A program made the translations under genes and the position numbers. Source: an uncultured virus (IMG/VR IMGVR_UViG_3300042894_008159) (Duplodnaviria > Heunggongvirae > Uroviricota > Caudoviricetes). Taken from it: a stretch of 62,012 bases of DNA. Every line of letters begins with the position of its first letter. The first letter of the stretch is position 1. Of this stretch, positions 16,862 to 62,012 are shown one piece after another. Location of the stretch: positions 62,001 to 124,012 of the IMG/VR virus record IMGVR_UViG_3300042894_008159. One strand, given 5' to 3'. The notes under the pieces were generated by a model, which saw nothing but the letters and a program-made list of their open reading frames with translations, ran no database searches and was not told the origin of the DNA.

Positions 16862-17860
16862 TCAGGAAAAAATTGGATTTTTTTCGAATAATTCTTCTAA
16901 TTCTCCAGGGTCAACTGGGACTGCTCCAGAATGTCTACACACTAAAGATCCTGCCAGATTAGCCAGTTCTGCTATTCGGATCAAATTCGACTTGGATACA
17001 AAATCGTATGTGCAAGAAAAAAACCCTAAGCTGAAAACTGAACTAACCGTGTCCCCCGCTCCAGAAACATCTGAAACATCTACATTTATACCAGGCACAT
17101 GATGAGAAAAGTGTCTCCCCACCAACAACATTCCTTTTTCTGATAAAGTAATTAGGAAATATTTATAGTCGAATTCTTCCATCACCAGTTGAGCATAATT
17201 TACGATCTGACTAATTTCTAAATCTTGTTCAGGTTTAATATTCACCATAGCCTTGAACTCATTCAAATTTGGCTTGATAAGATCTGTTCCTTGATATCTA
17301 CCAAGATCAGGTTCCTTAGGATCTACCAAAATTTCTTTCGAGTATTTCTTTGATATTTCAATCAAAGAAGTTAATATGAAATCTGTAAATAATCCCTTTC
17401 CGTAATCTTGAAAAATCACACCGTCATGCAATTGAACTTGTTTTTCAAATTCCTCAATGATTCTCAAACTAGAATCATATGATAAATCATGTGTTTGTTC
17501 AACGTCGATTCTGACAATTTGATGTTTATTTCCTATAATCCTGGTTTTTTTCGTTGTTGGTCTATCTTGCTCGTGGACGAAAATCGGATCTATATTTTTT
17601 TCGTTACATTTTTTCAACAACATTTTTCCATCTTCGTCATCTCCTACCAAAGTCAATAAAGTGCACTTGGCTCCGAAGGCTGTAATATTCTGAGCGACAT
17701 TTGCTGCTCCACCTAGAAAAAATTGCTCTTTGCTTTTCAGAACAACTGGAACTGGTGCTTCCGGGGATATTCTATGAACCTTTCCATAAACATAGTGGTC
17801 CAAAATAGAATCACCAACAACCAATATTTTTTTAGATAAAAATAATTCCCTAAAATTCAT
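16862..17860 (-). CDS. hldA: D-glycero-D-manno-heptose-7-phosphate kinase (HldE/RfaE kinase domain, PfkB family)
   Basis: LVVGD.ILD.Y..G...RISPEAPVPV, GGAANVA, TTKKTRI, DYGKG, VDPK, KPN..E, DVSGAGDTV; no fused adenylyltransferase domain. Confidence 0.92.
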   Translation of the reverse strand: MNFRELFLSKKILVVGDSILDHYVYGKVHRISPEAPVPVVLKSKEQFFLGGAANVAQNITAFGAKCTLLTLVGDDEDGKMLLKKCNEKNIDPIFVHEQDRPTTKKTRIIGNKHQIVRIDVEQTHDLSYDSSLRIIEEFEKQVQLHDGVIFQDYGKGLFTDFILTSLIEISKKYSKEILVDPKEPDLGRYQGTDLIKPNLNEFKAMVNIKPEQDLEISQIVNYAQLVMEEFDYKYFLITLSEKGMLLVGRHFSHHVPGINVDVSDVSGAGDTVSSVFSLGFFSCTYDFVSKSNLIRIAELANLAGSLVCRHSGAVPVDPGELEELFEKNPIFS

Positions 17861-29344: not shown

Positions 29345-29820
29345 GATATAAACGAATTTATGAATTGCATAATCTGTTCCCAATACCTAACAACATAACT
29401 AAGAGCTACCATTTCTAAACAGAATCTGAGCAACCAAATCCAACTTAATTCCCGATAGACAAAATAATAAACAACTAAAAATGAATCACCCCTAGTTTCT
29501 TTTAGTGGTTTGAGAAAAGGTGCGATCAATTCGTGCAAATTCAAACGGGTTAGATATTCGTTGATGGGCCTGATTTCTTCAAAGACAAAAGCTGGTCTTG
29601 CATCATCAGGAAAATCCCTAGATTGTGTAACTTCAGGAGGAAGATTCACGACGGTATAAATTCTACCGAACCAATCTTTTCTTAATCTTAATTTGCTCCA
29701 TTGAGGAGAACTTAGTGATTCTTTTTTTATAACTGTAAGGTAGTCTGAATATAATTTCAAGTCCTTTAGGACACCCCATAATCTAAGGGTAACTATTATT
29801 CTGCCTAGAAAGTCAATCAT
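29338..29820 (-). CDS. Hypothetical protein with C-terminal hydrophobic helix
   Basis: 160 aa; ATGA overlap with the sigma gene; LSWIWLLRFCLEMVALSYVV. Confidence 0.65.
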   Translation of the reverse strand: MIDFLGRIIVTLRLWGVLKDLKLYSDYLTVIKKESLSSPQWSKLRLRKDWFGRIYTVVNLPPEVTQSRDFPDDARPAFVFEEIRPINEYLTRLNLHELIAPFLKPLKETRGDSFLVVYYFVYRELSWIWLLRFCLEMVALSYVVRYWEQIMQFINSFISW

Positions 29821-44014: not shown

Positions 44015-45196
44015 CTACAAACCTTGCTCTTGTATAAGTAAATTAATTTGTTCAATCACAAGTTGTGGACTCAGCTTTGTGGTACACTCAAACATTCTTT
44101 CTGTATTTTTCAATCTAGGACACCAGTTCCAATCTCCACGATCAAACTTATATTTTACGTCGTTGAAACACCCGTGACACACATTTCTATTGATAACCCT
44201 ATAATTCATTCTCGAAAATTCACAGGATGGATCGGAAAACCCAGAAATCATAACCACTGGTTTTTGCAAAAACCACGCTAGCCAGGAAAGTCCAGAACCA
44301 ATGCCGATAAAAAAATCTGCTTGATAGATATCGGCCATTCTTTGTAAAATATCTCGGTCCCCGGTTTTATCTACCACACTCTCTAAAGTGTTGTTTTGTT
44401 TGTGAATGACCCGAACTTCATAACCAAGTATTCGAAGGTAATCCACTATTGTCTGCCATCCCTTTTCGTAGTGCCAGTGTTTGGCATTGGCTGTAGACTC
44501 TGTAGCCAAACAAACATATTTTCCGGATTCTCTTGGAGGCAAGCTATACAACCAATTAGGAAGTTGTGGAGGAAGTAAATCAGTTTTAACATCTATCCCC
44601 AGGATATCTCCTGCCACCTGTTGTAAAGAAATAGATCTAGGATCTCTGCGATGACAATTTCTATCTTCCTCTTCGTACCAGCCAACACCAAAAACTGCCT
44701 TAGCGGAATGATCCCTGTATCCGGGTGGGAAAAATTTAAGTTGTGGAAAAAATTGCGTTAGTAAAGAATTCCAAAAGGTAGTAACAATAACATCTGCCTG
44801 ATATTTATTCCGTAAAGCCTCTACCACCGGAACCCAGGCCAAAGTATCTCCTAATGAAGAGGAATCAATAGAAACCAAAATTTTCTGTTTGTGAAGAGAA
44901 GACTCAAAGTCAAAACTCCAGATTTCTTTGGTTCCTTCGTAAACCTCTACTCGCCATGGGGTAAACCATCTTCTGAAAACCGACGTAAATAATCCAGGAC
45001 TGGTTTCTGTCTCGAAAACATAATGATTGGTGTTTAGATCTTTGTATTTTATGGTTCTTTTAGTTTTTGGATTATTTCCAACCATATCAACTTTGGGGCC
45101 ATAATCAAAACTAAATTTGAAATCAAAAGTGTCTTTGACCCTACACCTAAGGTCTTTTACCACATTTTTATAAACATCTATACCTTTATTTTTCAT
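44015..45196 (-). CDS. TibC/AAH-family (autotransporter-type) protein O-heptosyltransferase
   Basis: SLGDT.AW.P, STA.AK.W....W..IV..L...GY, FFIG.GSGLSWLAW, VMISGFS...EF..YRVIN, four-Cys iron finger C..C...WCPR...FECT. Confidence 0.88.
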   Translation of the reverse strand: MKNKGIDVYKNVVKDLRCRVKDTFDFKFSFDYGPKVDMVGNNPKTKRTIKYKDLNTNHYVFETETSPGLFTSVFRRWFTPWRVEVYEGTKEIWSFDFESSLHKQKILVSIDSSSLGDTLAWVPVVEALRNKYQADVIVTTFWNSLLTQFFPQLKFFPPGYRDHSAKAVFGVGWYEEEDRNCHRRDPRSISLQQVAGDILGIDVKTDLLPPQLPNWLYSLPPRESGKYVCLATESTANAKHWHYEKGWQTIVDYLRILGYEVRVIHKQNNTLESVVDKTGDRDILQRMADIYQADFFIGIGSGLSWLAWFLQKPVVMISGFSDPSCEFSRMNYRVINRNVCHGCFNDVKYKFDRGDWNWCPRLKNTERMFECTTKLSPQLVIEQINLLIQEQGL

Positions 45197-46254
45197 GAAT
45201 TAAAACCTAAAATTTCTTGAATGAGACGAGTGTTGTAAGCTTTTCCTGATTTTTCAACATCTGAGGAAAAATAATGAACTAGAGGATTGTTATCATAATC
45301 ATCCATATACGAAGGCAATCTTCTCATCATGATAGGGAGTTTCCATGATAAAGATTCTTTTATTACAATGGGATTCAACTCCCAGACTGAATTGAAAACA
45401 AACAAATCAGCAGCTTGAAAAAATAAATCAGTATCGGATCTTTCCCCCCAAACTCTACAATTTTCTGGCACATTTTGAAGGATTGGCTCCCAGTATTCCT
45501 GAAAGTTACAGGCGAGATTTCCCACGAAATGAAACTCTATCGGAAGATGTGTCATCTCTCTGGCGAATTCAATTAATTCTCCTTGGTTTTTTCCTTGTGT
45601 GAAAAGACCAACGTTGATAACATGTTTTTTGTCAGGGTCTAAACCCAATAAATTTATAGCTTTTTCTTTCCCAATACTTTCGAAATTTTCAATTGGATAT
45701 TCCAACAAGTCCAAATTAAAACCAGAATTTTCGAAAACTTTTAACATCCATTTGTTGACCATCACGATTTTATCTGGACACCAAAATTTATCAGATGGTT
45801 TGTTGTTTGAAGAATGGCAGGTCTCAAAGATAAACCAGGGTCTATTTGGAACATAAATTTTCTCACACATCTCGTTACCAAGGAAAAATTCCACAAAATC
45901 TTGAAAATGAATAACGTCAGGACACACCCGATGAATAATTTCTAGGAATTCACTCTTGTCTTCCGAGTCCAATCTGAAGTAATTTTCTCCCAAAAGGTTT
46001 TGAATTCTTTCTCTCTGAACTGTGAATTGATCGGAAAGATTGTTATATTCAACACAGAATATTTCGGAAAAAGGCAACAGGCACTCAATACATTTATAAA
46101 GGTACTGAGGCATCCCTCCGGTGGAGAGATGAGGAGCAACGAAAAGGATCCTGGGTTTGTTACCTGAAATTTCTGAAATAGATTGTTCTACGTCGTATAA
46201 AGTTTGAGTTAAATTGTATTTTAATTTTCTAAGAGAAAAGGAAGGATCTAACAT
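45193..46254 (-). CDS. Glycosyltransferase, GT-B (GT4-like)
   Basis: PHLSTGGMPQY, NVGLF..GKNQ, ADLFVF.S..E..PIV..E; ATGA-coupled to the heptosyltransferase. Confidence 0.85.
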   Translation of the reverse strand: MLDPSFSLRKLKYNLTQTLYDVEQSISEISGNKPRILFVAPHLSTGGMPQYLYKCIECLLPFSEIFCVEYNNLSDQFTVQRERIQNLLGENYFRLDSEDKSEFLEIIHRVCPDVIHFQDFVEFFLGNEMCEKIYVPNRPWFIFETCHSSNNKPSDKFWCPDKIVMVNKWMLKVFENSGFNLDLLEYPIENFESIGKEKAINLLGLDPDKKHVINVGLFTQGKNQGELIEFAREMTHLPIEFHFVGNLACNFQEYWEPILQNVPENCRVWGERSDTDLFFQAADLFVFNSVWELNPIVIKESLSWKLPIMMRRLPSYMDDYDNNPLVHYFSSDVEKSGKAYNTRLIQEILGFNS

Positions 46255-48156: not shown

Positions 48157-49314
48157 ATGAAACCTAAAATTTTAAGTTTGGTCCCAGATAGGCTTGAAAA
48201 ACCTATGGGAGGACTAGGAATTCAATACACACATATACATCCTTATTTACAAGAGAATTTTGAGGTATTCACTGTTTGTTATCCACACCTTACCCCACAA
48301 TTTTCATTTCCTAATACTAAACAAATTTACCCGTCATTTTTACCAGACCCAAAAGAACCAGGAAATCCTCTAATTTATAATCTGGCACACCAAATTAATT
48401 ATTTCACAGCTTCTTTAAAATTTCAACGACCTGATTTGATTCACGCCTACGATTGGCCATGCTACTTGGTAGCTAACCATCTGGCCATTTATTATGGGGT
48501 TCCTTTGGTGATGTCTTTGAGCTTAAGTATAAGAGGTCAAATCCAAAAAAATTTAAAAATTGTTTTTGATGACAAAAATTTCGATGGATTAACCACACAA
48601 AAAACTTTGGAGGGTTTGGAAACGGGGATGTTAAATTGTGCAGATATTATTGTTGGTGTCGGAAGTTTTTACAAAGACGTATATCCAGAATTTCGTTCGA
48701 AAATCAGAATTATTCCAAATGGAATCAATTTAGATTCTTGGATACCTAAGAGCCAAGTTTCAATACCTTTGGACAATGGTATAAATGTTCTATACATCGG
48801 AAGATTTGCCAAAATGAAAGGGTTTGATCATTTGATGAATGCAAATATTCCGGATGGGATTAATTTAATTGTGGCTGGATCATCTGAGGGAGGAGATTTA
48901 GAATGTGTAAATCTGCTTCAAGCTAAATTAGATTCGAAAAAAAAGAATTTATTTTTCTGTGGTCCTTTATATGGACAGAAAAAAATTGAACTCATGCACT
49001 CTGTAGAAGCAGTAATCATGCCCAGCGTTCATGAACCATTTGGCATTGTAGCTTTAGAAGCTTTTGCTTCCGGTGCCATATTGATTTCATCTCGTTTAGA
49101 TGGTTTGGGTGATTTTGTAAACGAAAGAAATTCAATGTTGGTAGAACCAACTCCAGAAGGAATTGAAAAATCCCTTGAAAATTTATTGAAATTGAAAGAA
49201 GAAGAAAAGTTGAAATTAAAAATAGAAGGTAGAAAAACCTGTGAGATCTTTACATGGAAAAATGCTGGAGAAAAAATGACAGAAGTCTACAATGAACTTC
49301 TAAAATCTCGTTAA
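48157..49314 (+). CDS. Glycosyltransferase family 4 (GT-B)
   Basis: GGLG, PDLIHA.DW, IPNGI, YIGR....KG, MPS.HEPFGIVALEA; the only convincing + strand gene. Confidence 0.92.
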   Translation: MKPKILSLVPDRLEKPMGGLGIQYTHIHPYLQENFEVFTVCYPHLTPQFSFPNTKQIYPSFLPDPKEPGNPLIYNLAHQINYFTASLKFQRPDLIHAYDWPCYLVANHLAIYYGVPLVMSLSLSIRGQIQKNLKIVFDDKNFDGLTTQKTLEGLETGMLNCADIIVGVGSFYKDVYPEFRSKIRIIPNGINLDSWIPKSQVSIPLDNGINVLYIGRFAKMKGFDHLMNANIPDGINLIVAGSSEGGDLECVNLLQAKLDSKKKNLFFCGPLYGQKKIELMHSVEAVIMPSVHEPFGIVALEAFASGAILISSRLDGLGDFVNERNSMLVEPTPEGIEKSLENLLKLKEEEKLKLKIEGRKTCEIFTWKNAGEKMTEVYNELLKSR

Positions 49315-49948: not shown

Positions 49949-50602
49949 TTATTTTTTTAATCTTGATAAATAATCCAAAAAATTTCCTTCGTAGATTTTA
50001 ACACCGATGTGTTTACAGCACATAGAAGGATTTAACCAAATTTTAAAACCTAGATCTGTTAATTTTTTACACATCATTCTATCTTCACTCATCAAGTTTC
50101 CTTCAACAATACCAATATCAAAAACCATTCGATTTTGGGCTCCTTCGTTCCAATAGATTGAACTTTTCTCCCATAAAGTTAGTAGGGCCTTTCTTGACAG
50201 TTTCAAGAAACCAGTACCAATTCCTTCAACCTGCATCAATCCATGTTCATTGACTGATAAATTATTGGCGGATATAGGATAAATCTCCTTTGAATCTGTT
50301 TTTTTTGGATATGTTCCGCCAATAACATCAAGTGGGCTCTCTGCCAATTCAACAACCCATCGGGGGTTAAATTCCAAATCATGATCTATGAAAATTATAC
50401 TTTCTACCTGATGTTGAACCGCTAATTTAACAAGGTCGTTTCTGGCTCTTTGTACCAATGCATCATAGGAAAGAAAAATTGGGATTAAATCAATTTTTTT
50501 TAAAGATGCCTCTTTAATTGCTGAGAATAATGAAACTGCAAATTGGGCGGTAACCTTTCCATCATAGCACGGAGTTCCAATCATAATTTTTTTTTGAGAC
50601 AT
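49949..50602 (-). CDS. Glycosyltransferase, GT-A fold
   Basis: IGTPCY, LV.RARN, DxD motif FIDHD, GTGF....R, SED..C, C.H.G; starts 18 nt after the fibre stop. Confidence 0.8.
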   Translation of the reverse strand: MSQKKIMIGTPCYDGKVTAQFAVSLFSAIKEASLKKIDLIPIFLSYDALVQRARNDLVKLAVQHQVESIIFIDHDLEFNPRWVVELAESPLDVIGGTYPKKTDSKEIYPISANNLSVNEHGLMQVEGIGTGFLKLSRKALLTLWEKSSIYWNEGAQNRMVFDIGIVEGNLMSEDRMMCKKLTDLGFKIWLNPSMCCKHIGVKIYEGNFLDYLSRLKK

Positions 50603-50620: not shown

Positions 50621-53600
50621 CTAATCTTTAGGGAGAGATTTCTCTAAAGTTTCAATTCTAGAGGTCAGCTCTTGAATAGCATTAACTAAATGCCAAGTTA
50701 CTCTGCTCGAATTGACAGATAAAACACCATCGGATGTTTCTGAAACTGCTTCTGGAATAATTAATTGAAACTCCTGTGCTATTACACCAATCTGAATTCC
50801 TGGTTTTTTAATGGCTCTGTTTTTTGGAATTTCGATAATTTCATCCTCTTTTCTATATTCGAAATTACGAACTCTTATGGAGTTAATAATTGACAAACCT
50901 TGTGAATTGTCAATAATATTTTTTTTCAATCTTATATCGGAGTTTACTTGCCAACTTGGATCATTTTGTCCATTATAAGCTCCGTTAGTACCACCAATAA
51001 AAGCGGTATCATCTGCTATACCTCCTGCAAGATCACCAATTACAATTTGATTTACCGCATTTGTTGCACTTCCTTCTGCACCTCGACCGATGATAACGTT
51101 TCCTGTTCCATTTATTAGCTGAGATCCTGCTTGATAACCAGCAGCAACATTTCTAGCTCCAACTGTCACATTTTTTAATGATTCAGATCCAACCGCCGTG
51201 TTTTGATTTCCGGTTGTGTTTGAACTTAAAGAAGCAGAACCAGCAGCAAGATTATTATCACCAGTTGTGTTTGAGTCTAGTGCTTGTGAACCTACTGCTA
51301 CGTTATTATCAGCAGTGCTGAGCAACAAAGCATTGTGTCCTATTGCAACGTTGTTACTATTCACAACATTTGCTCCCAAAGCATCGTTTCCTATCGCAAC
51401 ATTTTGAATTCCTGTTGTGTTATCATCCAAGGCCTGATATCCAACCGCTACGTTGTTGGCACCAGTGGTGTTGACACCCAATGCGTTAAATCCCACGGCT
51501 AGGTTAGGTGTTCCAGTTGTATTGGAATCTAAGGCTCTAGAACCAACAGCTACGTTGTTGTCAGCCGTGTTGAGCAGCAAGGCATTATGTCCTACAGCCA
51601 CGTTGTTGCTGTTGGTAGCGTTTGCTCCCAAAGCATCGTTTCCAACAGCAACATTTTGAATTCCTGTTGTGTTGACATCCAATGCCGAGTGTCCAACTGC
51701 TACGTTGTTGGCACCAGTGGTGTTGGCTTCTAAGGCTAATGTACCTATGGCTACGTTAGGTGTTCCAGTTGTATTGGAATCTAAGGCTCTAGAACCAACA
51801 GCTACGTTGTTGTCAGCCGTGTTGAGCAGCAAGGCATTATGTCCTACAGCCACGTTGTTGCTGTTGGTAGCGTTTGCTCCCAAAGCATCGTTTCCTATCG
51901 CAACATTTTGAACTCCTGTTGTGTTGGCATCCAAGGTCTGATGCCCAACAGCTACGTTGTTGGCACCTGTGGTGTTGAGACCCAATGCGTTAGTTCCTAC
52001 AGCCACGTTTGGAGTACCTGTTGTGTTTGCGTCTAGTGCTAATGAACCTATGGCCACGTTGTTGCTGACAGTGTTGAGCAACAAGGCGTTGTGACCGAAT
52101 GCTGTGTTATCTACTCCTGTAGCAACAGCTCCTAAAGCCTCGTTACCAACTGCCACATTTCGGACTCCTGTTGTGTTGGCATCCAAGGTCTGATGTCCAA
52201 CTGCTACGTTGTTGGCACCTGTGTTGTTGAGACCCAATGCGTTAGTACCTACTGCCACGTTTGGAGTACCTGTTGTGTTTGCGTCTAGTGCTAATGAACC
52301 TATGGCCACATTATTGTTGGTAGTGTTTAGCAACAAGGCGTTGTGGCCGAATGCTGTGTTATCAGTTCCAGTGGCAACAGCTCCTAAAGCCTCGTTACCA
52401 ACTGCCACATTTCGGACTCCTGTTGTGTTGGCATCCAAGGTCTGATGTCCAACTGCTACGTTGTTAGCACCTGTGTTGTTGACACCCAAAGCGTTAGTAC
52501 CAACGGCCACGTTTGGAGTACCTGTAGTGTTTGCGTCTAGTGCTAATGAACCTATGGCCACATTATTGTTGGTAGTGTTTAGCAACAAGGCGTTATGTCC
52601 TAAAGCCACATTATTCGTACCTGTAGCATTAGCACCTAAAGCATCAGTTCCTATGGCCACATTAGGTGTTCCAGTTGTATTGGCGTCTAAGGCTCTGGAT
52701 CCAACAGCCACATTATTGTTGGTAGTGTTTAGCAACAAGGCGTTATGTCCTAAAGCCACATTATTCGTACCTGTAGCATTAGCACCTAGAGCATCAGTTC
52801 CTATGGCCACATTAGGTGTTCCAGTTGTATTGGCGTCTAAGGCTCTGGAGCCAATTGCTACGTTGTTGTCGGCTGTGTTTAAAAGTAAGGAGTTAAAGCC
52901 TACAGCCACGTTATTACTGTTGATAAGGTTTGCTCCCAAAGAATCACTTCCGATTGCTATATTTTGTACACCTGTAGTATTGACGTCTAAAGCAGAAGAT
53001 CCTATAGCTACGTTATTAGCACCCGTAGTGTTGGCATTGAGAGCGGTAGGTCCTAAAACTACGTTCGTTGCAATAGAACCCGCTCCCCTTCCAACTCTAA
53101 CAGAGTTTACAGCCATATCTGAGCTTAAAACTTCTAAAGTAAATGTTGGAGCAGTCGTGCCACCGATTGTTATTCTACCGGTGTCATGGATCCTCATGAC
53201 CTCTACTCCACCTTCCACGAATCCGATTGTATCTGCTGCTGGAAAGTAAATTCCAGTGTTTGTATCAGCACTATTTAAACCTGCTGAGATCGATGGATTA
53301 GTAACTGTACCTGCAGTCAAATCTAATCTTCTAGTACCAGCAGCTAAATTTACTAAGGCCATTATTTGTGTTGTACCAGCATACCAATAGTAAGCGCCAT
53401 TAGCCGCTGATCCTATAATTGAATACCACATACTAGGAACACCACCGTCAGCCATATATCCCATACCAATGTCTACGGAAGCAGCACCTACACTGGGATA
53501 AAGAACAACTTTAGTACCAGCACTCCTTGTTGTGAATGCTGGTGGACCAGCTCCATTAGTATTGAAATCAATCCTATTAGATGTAACTCCATTTAAATAA

Positions 53601-56600
53601 ATTTGTGATGCACCTGTAGTTGGTGAGCCAGTACCTGTAAAAGATAAAGTAGGAGAAGTGTAAGTTAAATCAGATTCTACTGTAACGTTGGGTGAAGAAC
53701 CGTTTAAAGTTAATACACCATTATCAGTAGAACCAGATAAAGTGGCAAAACCAGAAGTTCCAGAAGATCCGGATGATCCTGAAGATCCGCTAGATCCAGA
53801 GGATCCTGATGAACCAGAGGTTCCAGAAGATCCGGATGATCCTGAAGATCCACTAGATCCCGAAGAACCAGACGTTCCAGAAGATCCAGATGATCCTGAA
53901 GATCCACTAGATCCCGAAGATCCACTCGAACCAGAAGAACCAGAAGATCCTGACGAACCAGACGTTCCAGAAGAACCTGATGACCCAGAAGATCCACTGG
54001 ATCCCGATGAACCAGAAGTTCCAGAAGAACCTGATGACCCAGAAGATCCACTCGAACCAGAAGAACCAGAAGATCCGCTAGATCCAGAGGATCCTGATGA
54101 ACCAGAGGTTCCAGAAGATCCGGATGATCCTGAAGATCCACTAGATCCCGAAGAACCAGACGTTCCAGAAGATCCAGATGATCCTGAAGATCCACTCGAA
54201 CCAGAAGAACCAGAAGATCCGCTAGATCCAGAAGATCCCGATGAACCAGAGGTTCCAGAAGATCCGGATGATCCTGAGGATCCACTTGAACCAGAAGATC
54301 CTGAAGAACCGGATGATCCTGACGAACCAGATGTTCCTCTAGTACCAGAAGAGCCTGAGGTTCCGGAAGAACCAGAAGAACCAGAAGATCCGCTAGATCC
54401 AGATGAACCAGATGTTCCAGAAGATCCTGACGAACCAGATGTTCCAGAAGAACCTGATGACCCAGAAGATCCACTAGATCCAGATGAACCTGATGTTCCA
54501 GAAGATCCTGATGATCCTGAAGATCCACTCGAACCAGAAGATCCAGAAGATCCACTAGATCCAGATGAACCAGATGTTCCGGAAGAACCTGATGACCCAG
54601 AAGATCCGCTAGATCCAGATGAACCTGATGTTCCAGAAGATCCAGATGATCCGGAAGATCCGCTAGATCCAGATGAACCTGACGATCCAGAAGATCCACT
54701 AGATCCAGATGAACCTGATGTTCCAGAAGATCCAGACGATCCGCTAGATCCAGATGAACCTGATGTTCCAGAAGATCCTGATGATCCTGAAGATCCACTC
54801 GAACCAGAAGATCCACTAGATCCTGATGAACCAGAAGTTCCTCTAGTACCAGAAGAACCAGAAGATCCACTAGATCCAGATGAACCTGATGTTCCAGAAG
54901 ATCCGGATGATCCGGAAGATCCGCTAGATCCAGATGAACCTGACGATCCAGAAGATCCGCTAGATCCAGATGAACCAGATGTTCCAGAAGATCCTGATGA
55001 TCCTGAAGATCCGCTAGATCCAGAGGATCCAGATGAACCTGAAGTTCCAGAAGAACCAGACGATCCAGAAGATCCACTAGATCCAGATGAACCTGATGAA
55101 CCAGAAGTTCCAGATGATCCTGATGATCCTGAAGATCCACTCGAACCAGAAGAGCCAGAAGATCCGCTAGATCCAGAGGATCCTGATGAACCAGAAGTTC
55201 CAGATGATCCGGAAGATCCGCTAGATCCAGATGAACCAGAAGTCCCTCTAGTACCAGACGATCCAGAAGATCCACTAGATCCAGATGAACCTGATGTTCC
55301 AGAAGATCCTGATGATCCTGAAGATCCACTCGAACCAGAAGAGCCAGAAGATCCGCTAGATCCAGATGAACCAGATGTTCCAGAAGATCCTGATGATCCT
55401 GAAGATCCGCTAGATCCAGAGGATCCTGATGAACCAGAAGTTCCAGATGATCCGGAAGATCCGCTAGATCCAGATGAACCAGACGATCCAGAAGATCCGC
55501 TAGATCCAGATGAACCTGATGTTCCAGAAGATCCTGATGATCCTGAAGATCCGCTCGAACCAGAAGATCCAGACGATCCACTTGATCCAGATGAACCAGA
55601 AGTTCCTCTAGTACCAGACGATCCAGAAGATCCGCTAGATCCAGATGAACCAGATGTTCCAGAAGAACCTGATGACCCAGAAGATCCGCTTGAACCAGAA
55701 GAGCCAGACGATCCAGAAGATCCACTAGATCCAGATGAACCTGATGTTCCAGAAGATCCAGACGATCCGCTAGATCCAGAGGATCCTGATGAACCAGAAG
55801 TTCCAGATGATCCGGAAGATCCGCTAGATCCAGATGAACCTGATGTTCCAGAAGATCCTGATGATCCTGAAGATCCACTCGAACCAGAAGAGCCAGAAGA
55901 TCCGCTAGATCCAGATGAACCAGATGTTCCAGAAGATCCTGATGATCCTGAAGATCCGCTAGATCCAGAGGATCCAGATGAACCTGAAGTTCCAGAAGAA
56001 CCAGACGATCCAGAAGATCCACTAGATCCAGATGAACCTGATGTTCCAGAAGATCCACTAGATCCAGATGAACCTGATGTTCCAGAAGATCCAGACGATC
56101 CGCTAGATCCAGATGAACCAGATGTTCCAGAAGAACCTGATGACCCAGAAGATCCACTAGATCCAGATGAACCTGATGTTCCAGAAGATCCTGATGATCC
56201 TGAAGATCCACTCGAACCAGAAGAGCCAGAAGATCCGCTAGATCCAGAGGATCCAGATGAACCAGAAGTTCCAGATGATCCGGAAGATCCGCTAGATCCA
56301 GATGAACCAGAAGATCCAGAAGATCCGCTAGATCCAGATGAACCAGATGTTCCAGAAGAACCTGATGACCCAGAAGATCCGCTTGAACCAGAAGAGCCAG
56401 ACGATCCAGAAGATCCACTAGATCCAGATGAACCTGATGTTCCAGAAGATCCAGACGATCCGCTAGATCCAGATGAACCAGAAGTTCCTCTAGTACCAGA
56501 CGATCCAGAAGATCCACTAGATCCAGATGAACCTGATGTTCCAGAAGATCCTGATGATCCTGAAGTTCCAGAAGAACCAGACGATCCTGAGGATCCACTT

Positions 56601-59158
56601 GAACCAGATGACCCACTAGATCCAGAGGATCCTGATGAACCTGAGGTTCCCCTAGTACCAGAAGAGCCTGAAGTTCCGGAAGAACCAGAGGATCCACTAG
56701 ATCCAGATGAACCAGATGTTCCAGAAGATCCTGATGATCCTGAGGATCCACTCGAACCAGAAGATCCCGAAGAACCAGAAGAGCCTGAAGTTCCGGAAGA
56801 ACCAGAGGATCCACTAGATCCTGATGAACCAGATGTTCCAGAAGAGCCAGAGGATCCGCTAGATCCAGAGGATCCAGATGAACCTGATGTTCCAGAAGAT
56901 CCTGAGGATCCACTTGAACCAGAAGATCCCGAAGAACCAGATGATCCTGATGAACCAGATGTTCCAGAAGAGCCAGATGATCCGCTAGATCCAGAGGATC
57001 CAGATGAACCTGATGTTCCAGAAGATCCAGAAGATCCGCTAGATCCAGATGAACCTGATGTTCCAGAAGATCCCGAGGATCCACTAGAACCAGAAGATCC
57101 CGAAGAACCAGATGATCCTGATGAACCAGATGTTCCAGAAGATCCAGATGATCCGCTAGATCCAGAGGATCCAGATGAACCTGAAGTTCCAGAAGAACCA
57201 GACGATCCCGAGGATCCACTTGAACCAGATGACCCACTAGATCCAGAGGATCCTGATGAACCTGAGGTTCCCCTAGTACCAGAAGAGCCTGAAGTTCCGG
57301 AAGACCCAGAGGATCCGCTAGATCCAGATGAACCTGATGTTCCAGAAGATCCTGAGGATCCTGATGATCCACTCGAACCAGAAGATCCCGAAGAACCAGA
57401 TGATCCTGACGAACCAGATGTTCCCATAGTACCAGAAGAGCCTGAGGTTCCGGAAGAACCAGAAGAACCTGAGGATCCACTTGATCCAGATGAACCAGAG
57501 GTTCCAGAAGAACCAGAAGATCCGCTAGATCCAGAGGATCCCGATGAACCAGAAGAACCAGATGATCCTGACGAACCGGATGTTCCAGAAGAACCTGATG
57601 ACCCCGAAGATCCACTGGAGCCCGAAGAACCAGACGTTCCAGAAGATCCAGATGATCCTGAAGATCCACTCGAACCAGAAGATCCAGATGTTCCGCTAGA
57701 TCCAGATGATCCGCTAGATCCAGAAGAACCACTCGAACCAGAAGAACCAGAAGATCCCGATGAACCAGACGTTCCTCTTGTACCGGAAGAACCCGATGAT
57801 CCGCTAGATCCGGAGGATCCTGAAGAACCAGATGTTCCAGAAGAGCCAGACGATCCCGAGGATCCACTCGAACCAGAAGAACCAGAAGATCCCGATGAGC
57901 CACTAGTTCCTGATGTACCATTTACACCAGATAGTCCAGAAGTACCATTAGATCCCGAGGATCCACTAGTTCCAGATGTACCATTTACACCAGATAGTCC
58001 AGAAGTACCTGAAGATCCAGATGAACCAGAAGATCCGCTAGATCCCGAGGATCCACTCGAACCAGATGAACCAGAAGAACCAGAGGATCCGCTAGATCCG
58101 GATGAACCTGAAGATCCGCTAGATCCAGAAGATCCCGATGAACCCGAAGTTCCAGAAGAACCTGATGATCCCGAAGATCCACTAGATCCAGAAGACCCCG
58201 AAGATCCGCTCGATCCAGATGAACCAGATGTTCCAGAAGAACCAGATGATCCAGAAGATCCACTCGACCCAGAAGAACCAGATGATCCAGAAGAACCACT
58301 AGATCCAGATGAACCAGAAGTTCCAGAAGAACCAGATGATCCAGAAGTTCCACTCGATCCAGAAGAACCAGACGATCCAGAAGATCCACTCGATCCAGAA
58401 GAACCTGATGTACCAGAAGATCCACTAGATCCAGATGAACCAGAAGTTCCAGAAGAACCCGAAGATCCAGAAGAACCCGAAGATCCAGAAGAACCAGATG
58501 ATCCAGAAGAACCAGAGGATCCTGAAGATCCACTTGAACCAGATGAACCTGAAGTTCCAGAAGATCCAGAAGAGCCAGAGGATCCCGAGGATCCACTTGA
58601 ACCGGATGATCCAGAAGATCCGGATGTACCAGAAGAACCAGAGGATCCTGAAGATCCACTAGATCCAGATGTTCCTCTAGTTCCAGAAGAGCCAGAGGAT
58701 CCTGAAGATCCACTCGATCCGGATGATCCCGAAGTTCCAGAAGAACCAGATGATCCAGAAGAACCACTTGATCCGGATGTACCGGAAGTTCCGGCAGAAA
58801 CTTGCCATCCGGAACCGGTATATCTATAAATTTGTCCATCCGAGGAATTAAAAATTATCATCCCCACTGCTGGATTAGGTACAGAATTTATGTCATTAAA
58901 AATAGGAAGAATTAAACCACTCCCTTTTACAAAAGAAGCATCGTTAATAAGTACATTTCCAGCTGTTGCCCCTGTTGCCTGAATAAAAATTGAATCGCTC
59001 TGTCCAGAAGGATATATTCTAATTGAACCATTGTCCAACACCTGAAAAGTTATTGGCTGATTTTCAGCAGTACCCCCGGCACCAAAGAATTTAAGAGTAC
59101 CTTGCCTAGGTTCAATCTGTATGTTTTTTCCTGAAGTTCCAAAAGGTCCGGTTGGCAT
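50621..59158 (-). CDS. Giant fibre protein: N-terminal anchor, (Gly-Ser/Thr-Ser)n shaft, beta-helical repeat head, C-terminal S74-type intramolecular chaperone
   Basis: 2845 aa; Gly at every third residue over 53750..58792; N(V/T)A(V/I)G..AL repeats; SDIRLKKNI...G.IAQE....PEAV...LVNAIQEL...IE.LE. Confidence 0.88.
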   Translation of the reverse strand: MPTGPFGTSGKNIQIEPRQGTLKFFGAGGTAENQPITFQVLDNGSIRIYPSGQSDSIFIQATGATAGNVLINDASFVKGSGLILPIFNDINSVPNPAVGMIIFNSSDGQIYRYTGSGWQVSAGTSGTSGSSGSSGSSGSSGTSGSSGSSGSSGSSGSSGTRGTSGSSGSSGSSGSSGTSGSSGSSGSSGSSGSSGSSGSSGTSGSSGSSGSSGSSGSSGSSGSSGSSGSSGSSGSSGTSGSSGSSGSSGTSGSSGSSGSSGSSGSSGSSGTSGSSGSSGTSGSSGSSGSSGSSGSSGSSGSSGSSGSSGTSGSSGSSGSSGSSGSSGSSGSSGSSGTSGSSGSSGSSGSSGSSGSSGSSGSSGSSGSSGSSGSSGSSGSSGSSGTSGLSGVNGTSGTSGSSGSNGTSGLSGVNGTSGTSGSSGSSGSSGSSGSSGSSGSSGTSGSSGSSGSSGSSGSSGTRGTSGSSGSSGSSGSSGSSGSSGSSGSSGTSGSSGSSGSSGSSGSSGTSGSSGSSGSSGSSGSSGTSGSSGSSGSSGSSGSSGSSGSSGSSGTSGSSGSSGSSGSSGSSGTSGSSGTMGTSGSSGSSGSSGSSGSSGSSGSSGSSGTSGSSGSSGSSGSSGTSGSSGTRGTSGSSGSSGSSGSSGSSGSSGSSGSSGTSGSSGSSGSSGSSGSSGTSGSSGSSGSSGSSGSSGSSGSSGTSGSSGSSGSSGSSGTSGSSGSSGSSGSSGSSGTSGSSGSSGSSGSSGSSGSSGSSGTSGSSGSSGSSGSSGSSGTSGSSGSSGSSGSSGTSGSSGSSGSSGSSGSSGSSGSSGTSGSSGSSGSSGSSGTSGSSGTRGTSGSSGSSGSSGSSGSSGSSGSSGSSGTSGSSGSSGTSGSSGSSGSSGSSGTRGTSGSSGSSGSSGSSGTSGSSGSSGSSGSSGSSGSSGSSGSSGSSGTSGSSGSSGSSGSSGSSGSSGSSGSSGTSGSSGSSGSSGSSGSSGSSGSSGSSGSSGTSGSSGSSGSSGSSGSSGTSGSSGSSGSSGSSGTSGSSGSSGSSGTSGSSGSSGSSGSSGSSGTSGSSGSSGSSGSSGSSGSSGTSGSSGSSGSSGSSGSSGSSGSSGSSGTSGSSGSSGSSGSSGTSGSSGSSGSSGSSGSSGTSGSSGSSGSSGSSGSSGSSGSSGSSGSSGTSGSSGSSGSSGSSGTRGTSGSSGSSGSSGSSGSSGSSGSSGSSGTSGSSGSSGSSGSSGSSGSSGSSGSSGTSGSSGSSGSSGSSGSSGSSGTSGSSGSSGSSGSSGSSGSSGSSGSSGTSGSSGSSGSSGSSGTRGTSGSSGSSGSSGSSGTSGSSGSSGSSGSSGSSGSSGSSGSSGSSGTSGSSGSSGSSGSSGSSGSSGTSGSSGSSGSSGSSGSSGSSGTSGSSGSSGSSGSSGSSGSSGSSGSSGSSGTSGSSGSSGSSGSSGTRGTSGSSGSSGSSGSSGSSGSSGSSGTSGSSGSSGSSGSSGTSGSSGSSGSSGSSGSSGSSGSSGSSGSSGTSGSSGSSGSSGSSGSSGTSGSSGSSGSSGSSGSSGSSGSSGSSGTSGSSGSSGSSGSSGSSGTSGSSGSSGTSGSSGSSGSSGSSGSSGTSGSSGTRGTSGSSGSSGSSGSSGSSGSSGSSGSSGTSGSSGSSGSSGSSGSSGSSGSSGSSGSSGTSGSSGSSGSSGSSGSSGTSGSSGSSGSSGSSGSSGSSGSSGSSGSSGTSGSSGSSGSSGSSGSSGTSGSSGSSGSSGSSGSSGSSGSSGSSGSSGTSGSSGSSGSSGSSGSSGTSGSSGSSGSSGSSGSSGSSGTSGFATLSGSTDNGVLTLNGSSPNVTVESDLTYTSPTLSFTGTGSPTTGASQIYLNGVTSNRIDFNTNGAGPPAFTTRSAGTKVVLYPSVGAASVDIGMGYMADGGVPSMWYSIIGSAANGAYYWYAGTTQIMALVNLAAGTRRLDLTAGTVTNPSISAGLNSADTNTGIYFPAADTIGFVEGGVEVMRIHDTGRITIGGTTAPTFTLEVLSSDMAVNSVRVGRGAGSIATNVVLGPTALNANTTGANNVAIGSSALDVNTTGVQNIAIGSDSLGANLINSNNVAVGFNSLLLNTADNNVAIGSRALDANTTGTPNVAIGTDALGANATGTNNVALGHNALLLNTTNNNVAVGSRALDANTTGTPNVAIGTDALGANATGTNNVALGHNALLLNTTNNNVAIGSLALDANTTGTPNVAVGTNALGVNNTGANNVAVGHQTLDANTTGVRNVAVGNEALGAVATGTDNTAFGHNALLLNTTNNNVAIGSLALDANTTGTPNVAVGTNALGLNNTGANNVAVGHQTLDANTTGVRNVAVGNEALGAVATGVDNTAFGHNALLLNTVSNNVAIGSLALDANTTGTPNVAVGTNALGLNTTGANNVAVGHQTLDANTTGVQNVAIGNDALGANATNSNNVAVGHNALLLNTADNNVAVGSRALDSNTTGTPNVAIGTLALEANTTGANNVAVGHSALDVNTTGIQNVAVGNDALGANATNSNNVAVGHNALLLNTADNNVAVGSRALDSNTTGTPNLAVGFNALGVNTTGANNVAVGYQALDDNTTGIQNVAIGNDALGANVVNSNNVAIGHNALLLSTADNNVAVGSQALDSNTTGDNNLAAGSASLSSNTTGNQNTAVGSESLKNVTVGARNVAAGYQAGSQLINGTGNVIIGRGAEGSATNAVNQIVIGDLAGGIADDTAFIGGTNGAYNGQNDPSWQVNSDIRLKKNIIDNSQGLSIINSIRVRNFEYRKEDEIIEIPKNRAIKKPGIQIGVIAQEFQLIIPEAVSETSDGVLSVNSSRVTWHLVNAIQELTSRIETLEKSLPKD
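51000..53110 (-). repeat. 13-14-aa N-V-A-V/I-G-x-x-A-L beta-helix-type repeats with recent block duplications
   Basis: Visible in translation; near-identical DNA blocks repeated around 52560-52850, 52010-52560 and 51500-51900. Boundaries approximate. Confidence 0.85.
53750..58792 (-). repeat. About 560 tandem 9-bp units encoding Gly-X-Y (mostly GSS/GTS)
   Basis: 5043 bp = 1681 codons; variant triplets (GTR, GLS, GVN, GSN, GTM) keep the Gly register. Confidence 0.95.
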
Positions 59159-59160
59159 GA

Positions 59161-62012
59161 TTACTTATTACTTTGTATATATTCAACTACCAAACGCTCA
59201 ACATCCTTTCTCTCGGCAAAAACGGTGTAAAAAAGATTTATTTCTTCACAATTGCCGCCAATTAAAATTTTGTTATCTAGAATTTCTTCTACGAAGTAAA
59301 GACAAGGCTTTCCTATAGGGGTTAGAATTACGGATATTGAATCAGAATGAATTAGATCCGCCCAATAATAAGGTAAAAGGATTTCTTTGCAATTTTGGAG
59401 ACGCCCCCTAACAAACACACCAACTTCTGGACCTTCCAAAACCGAATATCTCAATCTCCATGGTTCCTTTTTAGAAGGATGAAGAATATCAAAATTCTTT
59501 TGATTTGCGTTTATTATGTCGAAGTTGTCCAAAATGTTTGTTCCATCTCCATCAATATTTCCTCCAGCTTTCATATTGATACTACCGCCGTTAGTCTGAA
59601 GTTCTGCTCCATTTATCTTGACAGTATTACCAGTTGAATCTATCGCAACAGGGATACTTCCCAAAGAAATAACAGTTCCATTGTCAGTTATAGAGGAGTT
59701 CCCTATTGTTGTTGAACTTGTGAATTTAACTACAGTGTTTGTTGTTCCCGAAACAGAAACTGATGTTCCAGATGTACCAGAAGTTCCCCTGGTTCCAGAA
59801 GATCCCGATGTACCAGAAGAACCGGATGTACCAGAAGATCCACTAGATCCAGATGAACCGGAGGATCCAGAAGAACCTGAAGATCCAGACGATCCACTTG
59901 ATCCAGAAGAACCTGATGTTCCAGAAGAACCAGATGATCCTGAAGATCCACTTGATCCAGAAGAACCAGAAGTTCCTCTGGTTCCAGAAGAACCTGATGT
60001 TCCAGAAGAACCAGACGATCCGGAAGATCCGGATGTACCAGATGATCCACTAGATCCAGATGAACCGGATGATCCAGAAGAACCCGATGACCCACTTGAA
60101 CCAGAAGATCCCGATGTTCCAGAAGATCCGGATGATCCACTTGAACCAGAAGAGCCGGATGTACCAGAGGATCCACTAGATCCAGATGAACCGGATGATC
60201 CAGAAGAACCGGACGTTCCGGAAGATCCTGAAGATCCACTCGAACCAGAAGATCCGCTAGATCCAGAAGATCCTGATGAACCAGATGTTCCAGAAGACCC
60301 GGAGGATCCGCTGGATCCAGATGATCCTGAAGAGCCAGATGTTCCAGAAGACCCGGATGATCCTGAAGATCCGCTAGATCCAGAAGATCCTGATGAACCA
60401 GATGTTCCAGAAGACCCGGATGATCCGCTGGATCCAGATGATCCTGAAGAACCAGATGTTCCAGAAGACCCGGATGATCCTGAGGATCCACTAGATCCAG
60501 AAGATCCTGAAGAACCAGATGTTCCAGAAGACCCGGATGATCCGCTGGATCCAGATGATCCTGAAGAACCAGAGGATCCCGAGGATCCACTAGAACCAGA
60601 GGATCCAGATGAACCAGAGGTTCCTGAAGAACCAGAGGTTCCTGAAGAACCAGAAGATCCAGACGAACCGGAGGATCCAGAAGAACCTGAAGATCCACTT
60701 GATCCAGAAGAACCAGAAGTTCCTCTGGTTCCAGAAGAACCAGAAGATCCTGATGATCCACTAGATCCAGAAGAACCTGAAGAACCTGATGTTCCAGAAG
60801 AACCTGACGACCCGCTTGAACCTGAAGAACCCGATGTTCCGGAAGAACCAGACGATCCAGAAGATCCGCTAGACCCTGAAGAACCTGAAGATCCGGATGT
60901 TCCGGAAGAACCTGATGATCCGCTTGATCCAGATGAACCAGATGTTCCAGAAGAACCTGATGACCCGCTAGAACCTGAAGAACCCGATGTTCCGGATGAA
61001 CCTGATGATCCAGAAGAACCCGAAGATCCAGAAGATCCACTGGATCCAGAAGAACCAGAAGATCCGGATGTTCCTGAAGAACCTGAAGATCCACTTGATC
61101 CAGAAGACCCAGATGTACCAGAAGAACCAGAAGATCCGCTTGATCCAGAAGAACCGGAAGATCCAGATGTACCAGAAGAACCTGAAGATCCACTTGATCC
61201 AGAAGACCCAGATGTACCAGAAGATCCAGAGGATCCACTCGAACCAGAAGAACCTGATGTACCTGAGGATCCACTAGATCCAGATGAACCGGATGTACCA
61301 GAAGATCCACTAGATCCAGATGAACCGGAGGATCCAGAGGAACCGGAAGATCCAGATGTTCCAGAAGAACCAGATGATCCAGAAGATCCACTTGATCCAC
61401 TTGATCCAGATGTACCAGAAGACCCAGAGGATCCACTTGAACCAGAAGAGCCGGATGTACCAGAGGATCCACTAGATCCAGATGAACCGGAGGATCCAGA
61501 GGAACCGGAAGATCCAGAGGATCCAGATGTTCCAGAAGAACCAGATGATCCAGAAGATCCACTTGATCCAGATGTACCAGAAGACCCAGAGGATCCACTT
61601 GAACCAGAAGAGCCGGATGTACCAGAGGATCCACTAGATCCAGATGAACCGGATGATCCAGAAGAACCCGATGACCCGCTTGTACCAGAAGATCCACTAG
61701 ATCCAGATGAACCGGAGGATCCGGAAGATCCGCTAGATCCCGAAGAACCGGAAGATCCAGAAGATCCGCTAGACCCAGAAGAACCTGATGTTCCCGAAGA
61801 ACCCGATGATCCACTTGATCCAGAAGAACCTGAAGATCCAGAGGTTCCGGAAGAACCAGAAGATCCAGAAGATCCAGATGTTCCTGAAGAACCTGAAGAT
61901 CCACTTGATCCAGAAGAACCTGAAGATCCGGATGTTCCCGAAGAACCAGATGATCCGCTTGATCCAGATGAACCGGATGTTCCAGAAGAACCCGATGTCC
62001 CACTAGAACCCG
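59161..62012 (-). CDS. Second GSS-repeat fibre protein, 5' end beyond the window; C-terminal chaperone-like domain
   Basis: The track's 59161..59664 frame continues upstream (...GTSGTSVSVSGTTNTVVKFTSSTTIGNSSITDNG...) through GSS repeats to the edge; C-terminus K.F.I.HP....L....LEGPE..V..RG...LP.YW..L...LTP.G...ERKD. Confidence 0.85.
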   Translation of the reverse strand, partial: GSSGTSGSSGTSGSSGSSGSSGSSGTSGSSGSSGSSGSSGSSGTSGSSGSSGSSGTSGSSGSSGSSGSSGSSGTSGSSGSSGSSGSSGSSGSSGSSGSSGSSGSSGSSGTSGSSGSSGSSGSSGSSGSSGTSGSSGSSGSSGSSGTSGSSGSSGSSGSSGTSGSSGSSGSSGSSGSSGSSGSSGTSGSSGSSGSSGSSGTSGSSGSSGSSGSSGSSGTSGSSGSSGSSGSSGSSGSSGTSGSSGSSGSSGTSGSSGSSGSSGSSGTSGSSGSSGSSGSSGTSGSSGSSGSSGSSGSSGTSGSSGSSGSSGSSGTSGSSGSSGSSGSSGSSGSSGSSGSSGTSGSSGSSGSSGSSGTSGSSGSSGSSGSSGTSGSSGSSGSSGSSGSSGSSGTSGSSGSSGSSGSSGTSGSSGSSGSSGSSGSSGSSGTRGTSGSSGSSGSSGSSGSSGSSGSSGSSGTSGSSGTSGSSGSSGSSGSSGSSGSSGSSGSSGSSGSSGTSGSSGSSGSSGSSGSSGSSGTSGSSGSSGSSGSSGSSGTSGSSGSSGSSGSSGSSGSSGTSGSSGSSGSSGSSGSSGTSGSSGSSGSSGSSGSSGSSGSSGTSGSSGSSGSSGSSGSSGTSGSSGSSGSSGSSGTSGSSGSSGSSGSSGSSGSSGSSGSSGTSGSSGSSGSSGTSGSSGTRGTSGSSGSSGSSGSSGSSGTSGSSGSSGSSGSSGSSGSSGSSGSSGSSGTSGSSGTSGSSGTRGTSGTSGTSVSVSGTTNTVVKFTSSTTIGNSSITDNGTVISLGSIPVAIDSTGNTVKINGAELQTNGGSINMKAGGNIDGDGTNILDNFDIINANQKNFDILHPSKKEPWRLRYSVLEGPEVGVFVRGRLQNCKEILLPYYWADLIHSDSISVILTPIGKPCLYFVEEILDNKILIGGNCEEINLFYTVFAERKDVERLVVEYIQSNK
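59761..62012 (-). repeat. At least ~250 Gly-Ser/Thr-Ser triplet units, truncated by the window
   Basis: Same 9-bp degenerate unit as 53750..58792. Confidence 0.93.

Follow-up and report, generated by a model that had tools for sequence, protein, structure and literature searches.

Collagen-like tracts in phage fibres are already known, and for one pair, the prophage side-tail proteins EPclA and EPclB, which come from E. coli O157:H7, trimers with a triple helix have been shown by experiment, according to the sections of PMC3368898 that describe them. T4-like cyanophages also encode Gly-X-Y open reading frames (ORFs), such as P-SSM2 orf028 (in the relevant passage of PMC1079782, citing Smith et al. 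1998, 'Bacteriophage collagen'). Here we describe an array of this kind in a 62,012-nucleotide (nt) stretch of DNA from an uncultured virus of the Caudoviricetes (IMG/VR record IMGVR_UViG_3300042894_008159, positions 62,001 to 124,012), the whole of which we call the window. Its largest ORF, fibre gene B (50621..59158, minus strand, 2845 amino acids), carries a Gly-X-Y array and, judged by its sequence, encodes a fibre of the virion of an uncultured T4-like phage from a lake, with the array as its shaft. Like EPclA and EPclB, the predicted product of gene B is a phage fibre in which a Gly-X-Y domain lies between globular or trimerising domains. In contrast, the composition data for EPclA and EPclB in PMC3368898 give 48% Pro at X and charged residues at 36% of X and 31% of Y positions, against 0% Pro, 0.5% charged residues and 98% Ser/Thr in gene B; the gene B array is far longer, and the same source describes EPclA and EPclB as stable without modification. 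The cyanophage arrays contain Pro, are shorter and, in the passage of PMC1079782 that deals with them, are not linked to a protein glycosyltransferase. What is notable at the present locus is the length of the array, its all-hydroxyl composition and the likely dedicated protein O-glycosylation system that adjoins it.

Other described systems share single features with this locus. The serine-rich repeat adhesins of Gram-positive cocci are modified with GlcNAc by dedicated cytoplasmic enzymes (GtfA/GtfB, including a GT4 member), and mucin domains are similar. These adhesins resemble gene B in presenting a binding domain on a very long Ser/Thr-saturated stalk, but they have no Gly-X-Y register, no trimerising domains and enzymes of another family. 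BclA, from the exosporium of Bacillus anthracis, has Thr-rich triplets, mostly GPT, and is Pro-rich with O-glycans. It joins a Gly-X-Y region to a TNF/C1q jelly roll, as a third fibre gene of this phage (described below) probably does, but is a bacterial spore protein whose glycosyltransferases are not of the TibC family, and the domain between the arrays of the third fibre gene gave no significant match by sequence against the PDB. Collagen with glycosylated threonine in Riftia is reportedly a further precedent, for which a literature search gave only irrelevant matches. The closest described enzymes are those of the pairs TibC-TibA and Aah-AIDA-I (BAHT family, TIGR04414; PDB 4RAP/4RB4), in which, in the account of them in PMC4358343, the enzyme lies beside a repetitive surface adhesin whose Ser residues it hyperglycosylates while in the cytoplasm. 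In contrast to these pairs, the presumed acceptor at the present locus is a Gly-X-Y array and not a beta-helical passenger, and the gene is phage-borne.

A script scan of the gene B translation found a single unbroken run of 561 Gly-X-Y triplets. These comprise GSS (460), GTS (85), GTR (9), GLS (2), GVN (2), GSN (1), GTM (1) and GFA (1), so that position X holds S 461 times, T 95, L 2, V 2 and F 1, and position Y holds S 547 times, R 9, N 3, M 1 and A 1. Ser or Thr occupies 1103 of the 1122 X/Y positions (98%); the remainder include nine Arg, which are the only charged residues (0.5%), with no acidic residue and no Pro. Cys is absent from the array, and Gly makes up exactly one third of it (561/1683). 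The initial annotation had described about 560 uninterrupted Pro-free triplets with almost only Ser and Thr at X and Y and with every variant triplet in register, and our counts bear this out; its end point at 58792 also stands, whereas its start at 53750 and its 1681 codons become 53744 and 1683 residues. The Pfam Collagen model (PF01391) matched the last 300 amino acids of the array with 155.8 bits against a cut-off of 27.2 (E 2.4e-46), a score driven mostly by periodicity and composition, and many PHROG tail-fibre families matched the array as well. Three other ORFs within it (53688-58829, plus strand; 53710-57921 and 57985-58839, minus strand) were rejected as by-products of the repeat, because only the Gly-X-Y frame joins the flanking domains and varies at third positions.

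The coding pattern of the array suggests constraint at the protein level. Positions 1 and 2 of the 9-nt unit are G in 561 of 561 units of gene B, while the wobble positions 3, 6 and 9 have entropies of 1.22, 1.63 and 1.49 bits, and across the four arrays of the contig the first two positions of the Gly codon are unchanged in 1222 of 1222 triplets, with wobble entropies of 1.2-1.8 bits. DNA copies of the unit match one another at only about 70% (Tandem Repeats Finder, TRF), and none of the arrays is put out of register by an indel of 3 or 6 nt. Codons for Pro, Ala and Thr each lie one base away from the TCN codons for Ser, and the 2444 X/Y positions of the four arrays contain 0 Pro, 20 Ala and 364 Thr. 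Within gene B, Thr occurs at X only (95 vs 0) and Arg at Y only (9 vs 0). Triplets other than GSS are spaced 1 to 16 apart without a long-range period, and Thr placement has an autocorrelation of no more than 0.13 at every lag from 1 to 39. On these patterns the array is more than chance or simple slippage, and our reading is that purifying selection maintains both the Gly register and the hydroxyl side chains and acts differently on X and Y; selection on the register is indicated because the Gly codon is invariant while the wobble positions vary freely. The suggestion in the initial annotation that structure is under selection agrees with the coding data.

The best-supported reading of the array is a collagen-register shaft of a trimeric fibre, because of the Pfam Collagen score, the invariant Gly, the C-terminal S74 chaperone, the TNF/C1q-type domain in a sister gene and a Pro-rich array behind a homologous junction. 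For the fuller model, in which a homotrimeric fibre has a collagen-type triple-helix shaft of about 485 nm with Ser and Thr O-glycosylated by a TibC-type enzyme, we put the chances slightly above even. According to this model, three chains would be joined through the S74 chaperone at the C-terminus and the distal beta-helical region, after which the 561 triplets would zip into a triple helix of collagen type with a length of about 0.48 micrometre. Comparative genomics suggests that the outward Ser/Thr hydroxyls would be O-glycosylated in the host cytoplasm by the phage TibC/Aah-type transferase and that the three neighbouring glycosyltransferases may lengthen the glycan. More speculatively, the sugar coat could stabilise, stiffen and protect the rod, and the rod could hold the receptor-binding distal domain far from the particle, giving a larger capture radius in dilute lake water. 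The estimated length is the product of 1683 residues and the rise of 0.288 nm per residue given in section 6 of PMC3368898, in line with the extended chain of about 0.5 micrometre proposed in the initial annotation. No collagen group in Table 4 of the same paper has such a composition, which is what speaks most strongly against an unmodified helix and the chief ground for expecting a modification. A trimer fold run on 3 x 120 amino acids of the array with a 26-row alignment scored 0.00 and carries no weight either way.

A bolder form of this model can be advanced only tentatively, and we consider it rather less than evenly probable. It envisages a glyco-collagen, that is, a triple helix without imino acids or charge pairs in which about 1100 Ser/Thr in each chain (about 3300 in a trimer) would be O-heptosylated by a thumbless phage TibC-type enzyme, the sugar would replace the role of proline and hydroxyproline, and half-micrometre glycan-sheathed fibres would be widespread in large aquatic phages. 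If true, a Pro-free, uncharged, all-hydroxyl helix would challenge views on what triple-helix stability needs, and the TibC family, so far tied to a few adhesins of bacteria, would extend to the virions of phages and offer a concrete route of virion O-glycosylation. Fibres of about 0.5 micrometre would matter for host finding by large phages in dilute water, and the arrangement would provide a design for recombinant glycosylated rods.

Four glycosyltransferases lie between fibre gene B and the neck gene (Table 1), which confirms the adjacent glycosyltransferases mentioned in the initial annotation. One of them belongs, by sequence comparison, to the TibC/Aah family: it matched TIGR04414 ('autotransporter strand-loop-strand O-heptosyltransferase') over model positions 11-372 of 374 with 266.7 bits against a cut-off of 200 (E 3e-79), and a HMMER alignment to TibC (4rap; E 5e-54) covered TibC residues 43-386. 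Taking the catalytic, sugar-binding and iron-finger residues of TibC as listed in PMC4358343, the catalytic Asp-110 corresponds to D117 of the phage enzyme, the sugar-binding Thr-226, Lys-230, Arg-286 and Trp-305 to T235, K239, R286 and W305, and the iron-finger Cys-339, 342, 358 and 370 to C340, C343, C359 and C371. The beta-hairpin thumb differs, in that TibC residues 259-267, including the tip (Phe-265/Val-266), have no phage counterpart and leave a 9-residue gap. The stereoselectivity residue Pro-300 of TibC (Ser-294 in Aah) is Gly in the phage enzyme, so that its donor sugar may differ. Elsewhere in the window a PfkB kinase is closest to heptose-7-phosphate kinase (Table 1), and a Pfam search of contig positions 4.6-64 kb at E values up to 1e-4 found no further gene of the ADP-heptose pathway on the contig. 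E. coli makes ADP-heptose.

The glycosyltransferase directly downstream of gene B, orf217, was modelled with AlphaFold2 (pLDDT 87.6, pTM 0.88). The best Foldseek matches of the model were STIV A197, the collagen galactosyltransferase COLGALT1, the glycosyltransferase domain of LH3 and Mnn9, and D73 and D75 are invariant among homologues of orf217. Such homologues, with 23-44% identity, occur in nine distant fibre loci (L033, L047, L066-68, L075, L077-79), seven of which, from three lineages, carry Gly-X-Y arrays of other make-up (GXQ, GSQ or GPT/GAT).

Comparison across viral contigs indicated that the TibC-type enzyme tends to accompany Ser/Thr arrays. Among 80 loci with the junction domain that follows the gene B array, all 11 with GSS arrays have a TibC-like gene and none of the other 69 does, the 11 being close kin with neck proteins about 90% identical. 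When arrays were defined as at least 10 triplets with less than 3% Pro and at least 45% Ser/Thr, 32 of 62 enzyme-bearing viral loci had such an array within 10 kb of the enzyme, as did 19 of 34 lineages after the enzyme was clustered at 80% identity, and 17 of the 52 contigs listed for the GSS-encoding DNA pattern carried the enzyme in the flanks examined, 13 of these from beyond the close clade; the 10-kb flanks of fragmentary contigs make these counts too low both ways, and kinship is only partly removed from them. The enzyme is rare, occurring in 4 of 50,697 phage records. In the flanks of three of these four (LR756503 was left out), arrays were found at LR756501 and Mel-JY01, and LR756504 had no Gly-X-Y run of at least 8 triplets within 15 kb of its TibC-like gene. 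In an Arenicellales metagenome-assembled genome, two of two contigs (loci L308 and L309), which may be prophage or bacterial DNA, pair a TibC-like gene of 40% identity with Pro-free GSS arrays (17 and 26 triplets) within 1.5 kb. The initial annotation had tied the array to the adjacent glycosyltransferases through glycosylation; this proposed tie gains in strength and becomes specific, since one neighbour is a TibC/Aah-family enzyme and that family co-occurs with such arrays across phages. A literature search, covering main texts, found no paper that joins phages with O-heptosyltransferases or heptosyltransferases with collagen-like phage proteins.

A cultured carrier of both enzyme and arrays exists in Microcystis phage Mel-JY01 (PP395634.1), on which the literature search found no paper. 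A 1226-amino-acid protein annotated 'methyltransferase FkbM' combines its TibC-like domain with a GT4 domain as a fusion, and about 1.7 kb upstream of the enzyme, on the strand opposite to two annotated coding sequences (CDSs), there is an ORF for a collagen-like fibre. This open frame (locus L092, 2-3049, plus strand; at least 1016 amino acids) combines GSS/GTS/GTR and GPP triplets with a non-repetitive C-terminal part and underlies the minus-strand CDSs 1-651 and 739-2298; to judge from the frame, the strand chosen in the deposited annotation is probably the wrong one. NCBIfam gave no match for the 'cytidylyltransferase like' protein of Mel-JY01.

A phmmer search with 1200 amino acids of the array against 1.84 billion representatives returned 64,761 matches at E <=0.001, and in the best 150 of these no unbroken run exceeded 377 triplets, the longest having 7.3% Pro, and none came near 98% Ser/Thr. 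Pro-poor, Ser/Thr-rich arrays with globular domains between them do occur among the matches. The 735-kb phage LR756501.1 (locus L090, 4-6834 and 11683-15277) carries Pro-free GTS/GSS arrays of 308, 238 and at least 63 triplets, and a junction motif like that at the N-terminal side of the gene B array stands in its fibre ahead of 257 Pro-rich GPQ/GPT triplets. Because the same motif precedes a Pro-rich array in this phage, the comparison suggests that Pro-free and Pro-rich arrays are interchangeable shaft modules. Several enzyme-linked arrays begin with GAPGPAG or GAPGPQG.

A number of observations weigh against a triple-helical shaft glycosylated by the TibC-type enzyme. Ser and Thr are poor helix formers on the host-guest stability scale, and flexible linkers are classically (GS)-rich. 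The phage enzyme may differ from TibC in its mode of action, since the thumb that builds the TibC dodecamer loses its tip in the alignment and a dodecamer ring becomes doubtful. By the profile searches, the heptose kinase match is under its curated cut-off and is the only candidate ADP-heptose gene on the 124-kb contig. Fifteen of the 34 enzyme lineages have no Ser/Thr array within 10 kb, and 35 of the 52 GSS-pattern contigs listed have no enzyme in the flanks examined. Every set of natural collagens listed in PMC3368898 (Table 4) has 22-48% Pro at X or many charged residues, and the gene B array lacks the stabilising X/Y residues (imino acids, charge pairs) of the collagens in that table. The TibC/Aah acceptors described in PMC4358343 are beta-helical autotransporters and not Gly-X-Y repeats, and the beta-helix-like region of gene B could be the true acceptor. 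Finally, where aquatic T4-like phages have glycosyltransferases in their fibre regions, the usual interpretation is that these modify host lipopolysaccharide (LPS), as in the portion of PMC7029224 that treats them.

These points lead to several alternatives. The first is that the shaft is mucin-like or a linker and forms no triple helix; the three chains, tethered at both ends, would stay separate in this tract, being either flexible or, with glycans, extended like bottle-brushes, and the Gly-X-Y period would reflect the acceptor motif of the transferase or the expansion history of the 9-nt unit, not helix packing; we judge both forms of this idea rather unlikely. A linker would suit an array with 0 Pro and 0.5% charged residues that falls outside all the groups of Table 4 in PMC3368898, but a loose linker should allow Ala or Ser in place of a Gly that is invariant in all 1222 triplets with free wobble. 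Hydroxyl residues do seem to be favoured as such, with 364 Thr against 0 Pro and 20 Ala, yet the restriction of Thr to X and Arg to Y in gene B shows that the two positions are not equivalent. Although the linkage to transferases fits an array of sequons equally well, the homologous junction motif that leads into a Pro-rich array, the GAPGPAG and GAPGPQG openings of enzyme-linked arrays and the obligate-trimer domains that flank the arrays argue for the collagen register.

A second alternative accepts the fibre but has the glycosyltransferases act elsewhere, on host LPS or capsule, on another virion protein or on the beta-helix region of the fibre itself, and leaves the shaft unglycosylated, a possibility that we regard as unlikely. 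The beta-helical passengers that PMC4358343 gives as acceptors of TibC/Aah have a possible counterpart in the beta-helix-like repeats of gene B; however, one relative (L012) keeps the transferase island together with a 308-triplet array in a fibre that has neither the long beta-helix repeat region nor S74. Within the close clade, with its neck proteins about 90% identical, the transferase island is syntenic by descent alone, whereas across enzyme lineages the common neighbour is the Ser/Thr Gly-X-Y array (19/34). Glycosyltransferases of host-recognition clusters are commonly assigned to LPS modification, in the part of PMC7029224 noted above, but the BAHT family is known, in the account of PMC4358343, only as protein glycosyltransferases.

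A third alternative is that the length of the array is an assembly artefact and the true array is much shorter, longer or polymorphic. We consider this improbable, and on the sequence comparisons that follow the array is probably as long as assembled; the concern is reduced but not removed. The window ends where the 124,012-bp contig ends, both contig ends fall inside such arrays, and contigs of many relatives break in arrays as well. Against an artefact, a second, longer viral contig (126,669 bp; CheckV 46% complete) contains gene B without a single mismatch over 8538 nt, the 5049 nt of the array among them, although the two contigs are possibly not independent data. The neighbouring sister gene behaves differently. 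Its array, with at least 250 or at least 380 triplets before the C-terminal domain, has an indel of 972 nt (108 triplets) when two assemblies of what is otherwise one genotype are compared (window 59761-62010 vs locus L005 1-3420); either real length polymorphism or assembly collapse would account for this. Exact internal repeats in the gene B array reach 160-161 nt, but only 3.6% of its 127-mers and 0.6% of its 151-mers are repeated. In a related phage, a complete internal array of 308 triplets shows 0-2 differences over 4047 nt in four samples. Logan contigs from four lake runs of four studies match the gene B array exactly, in pieces of 88-163 nt, and none of them bridges it (window 53300-59300); the bins from 58928 to 59300 have no Logan cover in any of the four runs, a hole that proves nothing. 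Circular closure, with one wrap-around gene at both ends, was rejected: neither contig has a terminal overlap, and the longer one is 46% complete.

The snow-flea antifreeze protein is a small, disulfide-bonded polyglycine-II (PGII) bundle with short helices, turns and a higher Gly share, and PGII sandwiches exist in phage adhesins. A folded bundle of this type, offered as the alternative in the initial annotation and consisting of short PGII helices side by side that might bind ice, would be compatible with the three-residue Gly period and small side chains that gene B shares with the snow-flea protein, but it is highly improbable for an array of 1683 unbroken residues with no turn or loop motifs, no periodic turn signal, no fixed segment length (spacing and autocorrelation as above), no Cys and exactly 33% Gly, below the share of such bundles, the other features of the snow-flea protein being absent here.

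Table 1. Features of the fibre and glycosyltransferase region and a candidate heptose kinase, in window coordinates
Feature	Coordinates	Strand	Remarks
Upstream sister fibre gene, 3' part, cut by contig end	59161..62010	-	at least 250 GXY triplets (59761-62010) and 200-aa C-domain
Gene B N-terminal domain, aa 1-122	58793..59158	-	ends in junction motif ...IFNSSDGQIYRYTGSGWQVSA directly before array
Gene B Gly-X-Y array, presumed collagen-type shaft	53744..58792	-	aa 123-1805; 561 triplets, 1683 aa, Pro-free
Gene B conserved post-array junction domain, aa 1806-2086	52901..53743	-	345 relatives in viral contigs
Gene B beta-helix-like tandem repeats NNVAIG...ANTTG...	51260..52915	-	TRF: 252-nt period, 5.5 copies
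Gene B C-terminal S74 intramolecular chaperone, from about aa 2740, including stop codon	50621..50941	-	PF13884
orf217, GT-A fold glycosyltransferase with DxD	49949..50602	-	directly downstream of fibre gene B
GT4-family glycosyltransferase	48157..49314	+	PF00534 E 1.8e-19, PF13439
GT-B (Glycos_transf_1) glycosyltransferase	45193..46254	-	PF00534 E 4e-8
TibC/Aah-family (BAHT) protein O-heptosyltransferase homologue, candidate shaft glycosylator	44015..45196	-	TIGR04414
PfkB kinase, closest to heptose-7-phosphate kinase	16862..17860	-	TIGR02198 311 bits vs cut-off 345; PF00294

The domains that flank the array in gene B differ in how widely they are found. Searches against Pfam gave no family for the N-terminal domain, the junction domain, the C-terminal domain of the upstream sister gene or the inter-array domain of the third fibre gene. 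Residues 62-122 of the N-terminal domain gave a weak tblastn match (36%) to the 735-kb phage LR756501; no homologue of the domain was found among long proteins, and in viral contigs the search returned the phage itself only. Relatives of the junction domain in viral contigs have GSS, GXQ or no arrays upstream. The beta-helix-like region matched PHROG virion structural and tail-spike families with E values of 1e-115 to 7e-111. The S74-type chaperone named in the initial annotation was recovered at the C-terminus as PF13884, with E 4e-11 (residues 935-1000 of a 1040-amino-acid C-terminal piece) and E 3.8e-12 on a shorter piece, the scores being 43.5 to 46.7 bits against a threshold of 22, and the domain also matched the MYRF ICA chain 7dc3 (E 0.0018). 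Its start reads ...WQVNSDIRLKKNI..., where a Ser-Lys autocleavage dyad with the S-x4-K spacing of S74 domains may be present.

Two further fibre genes of this phage carry Gly-X-Y arrays. The C-terminal domain of the upstream sister gene, which is common to cyanophage proteins, matched phrog_17490, proteins of T4-like cyanophages and the 'tail fiber-like protein' of Flavobacterium phage immuto. The third fibre gene, at the other end of the contig (contig positions 1-4548, outside the window; locus L001), encodes at least 1516 amino acids arranged as an N-terminal domain, 286 Gly-X-Y triplets with a regular GSDGT motif, a 162-amino-acid domain (contig 1129-1614) and at least 126 triplets that run off the contig start. 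A model of the inter-array domain (pLDDT 57.1, pTM 0.59) found EDA-A1 in Foldseek (E 2.5e-6, TMq 0.62) as well as the C-terminal domain of BclA (chains 3tyj, 2z5w and 1wck, E about 2e-5 to 3e-5), the C1q domain of Cbln1 and CD40L, with E values from 2.5e-6 to 1e-4, and it also matched ExsFA. These matches are trimeric TNF/C1q jelly rolls, several of them joined to collagen regions, and the inter-array domain, in a model of modest confidence, matches a ten-strand jelly roll of the TNF/C1q type.

The window as a whole is a T4-like myovirus module with a Gp23-type capsid protein, two tandem Gp20-type portals, sheath, large terminase and a neck-like protein. Its capsid protein is nearest to those of Lak megaphages and of phages of Tenacibaculum, Chryseobacterium and Flavobacterium (38-44% identity), and DNA of the phage is present in lake and freshwater metagenome runs. 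The genes run in the order fibres, glycosyltransferase island, neck, terminase and sheath, which resembles the gp12/wac-to-gp18 order of T4, and the fibres may attach at either the neck or the baseplate. The tandem Gp20 portal paralogues (17871-19478 and 19481-21106, minus strand; 535 and 541 amino acids) match PF07230 over its full length (E 8.5e-59 and 4e-61), and two portal genes in one phage are unusual. A 677-amino-acid protein (3722-5755, minus strand) shows prohead protease signatures (S77/S80) in its first 170 residues only. A protein with a TnsA-like endonuclease domain and two sigma-70-like factors (21736-22221, 22222-22581 and 29817-30434, minus strand) lie among the structural and replication genes.

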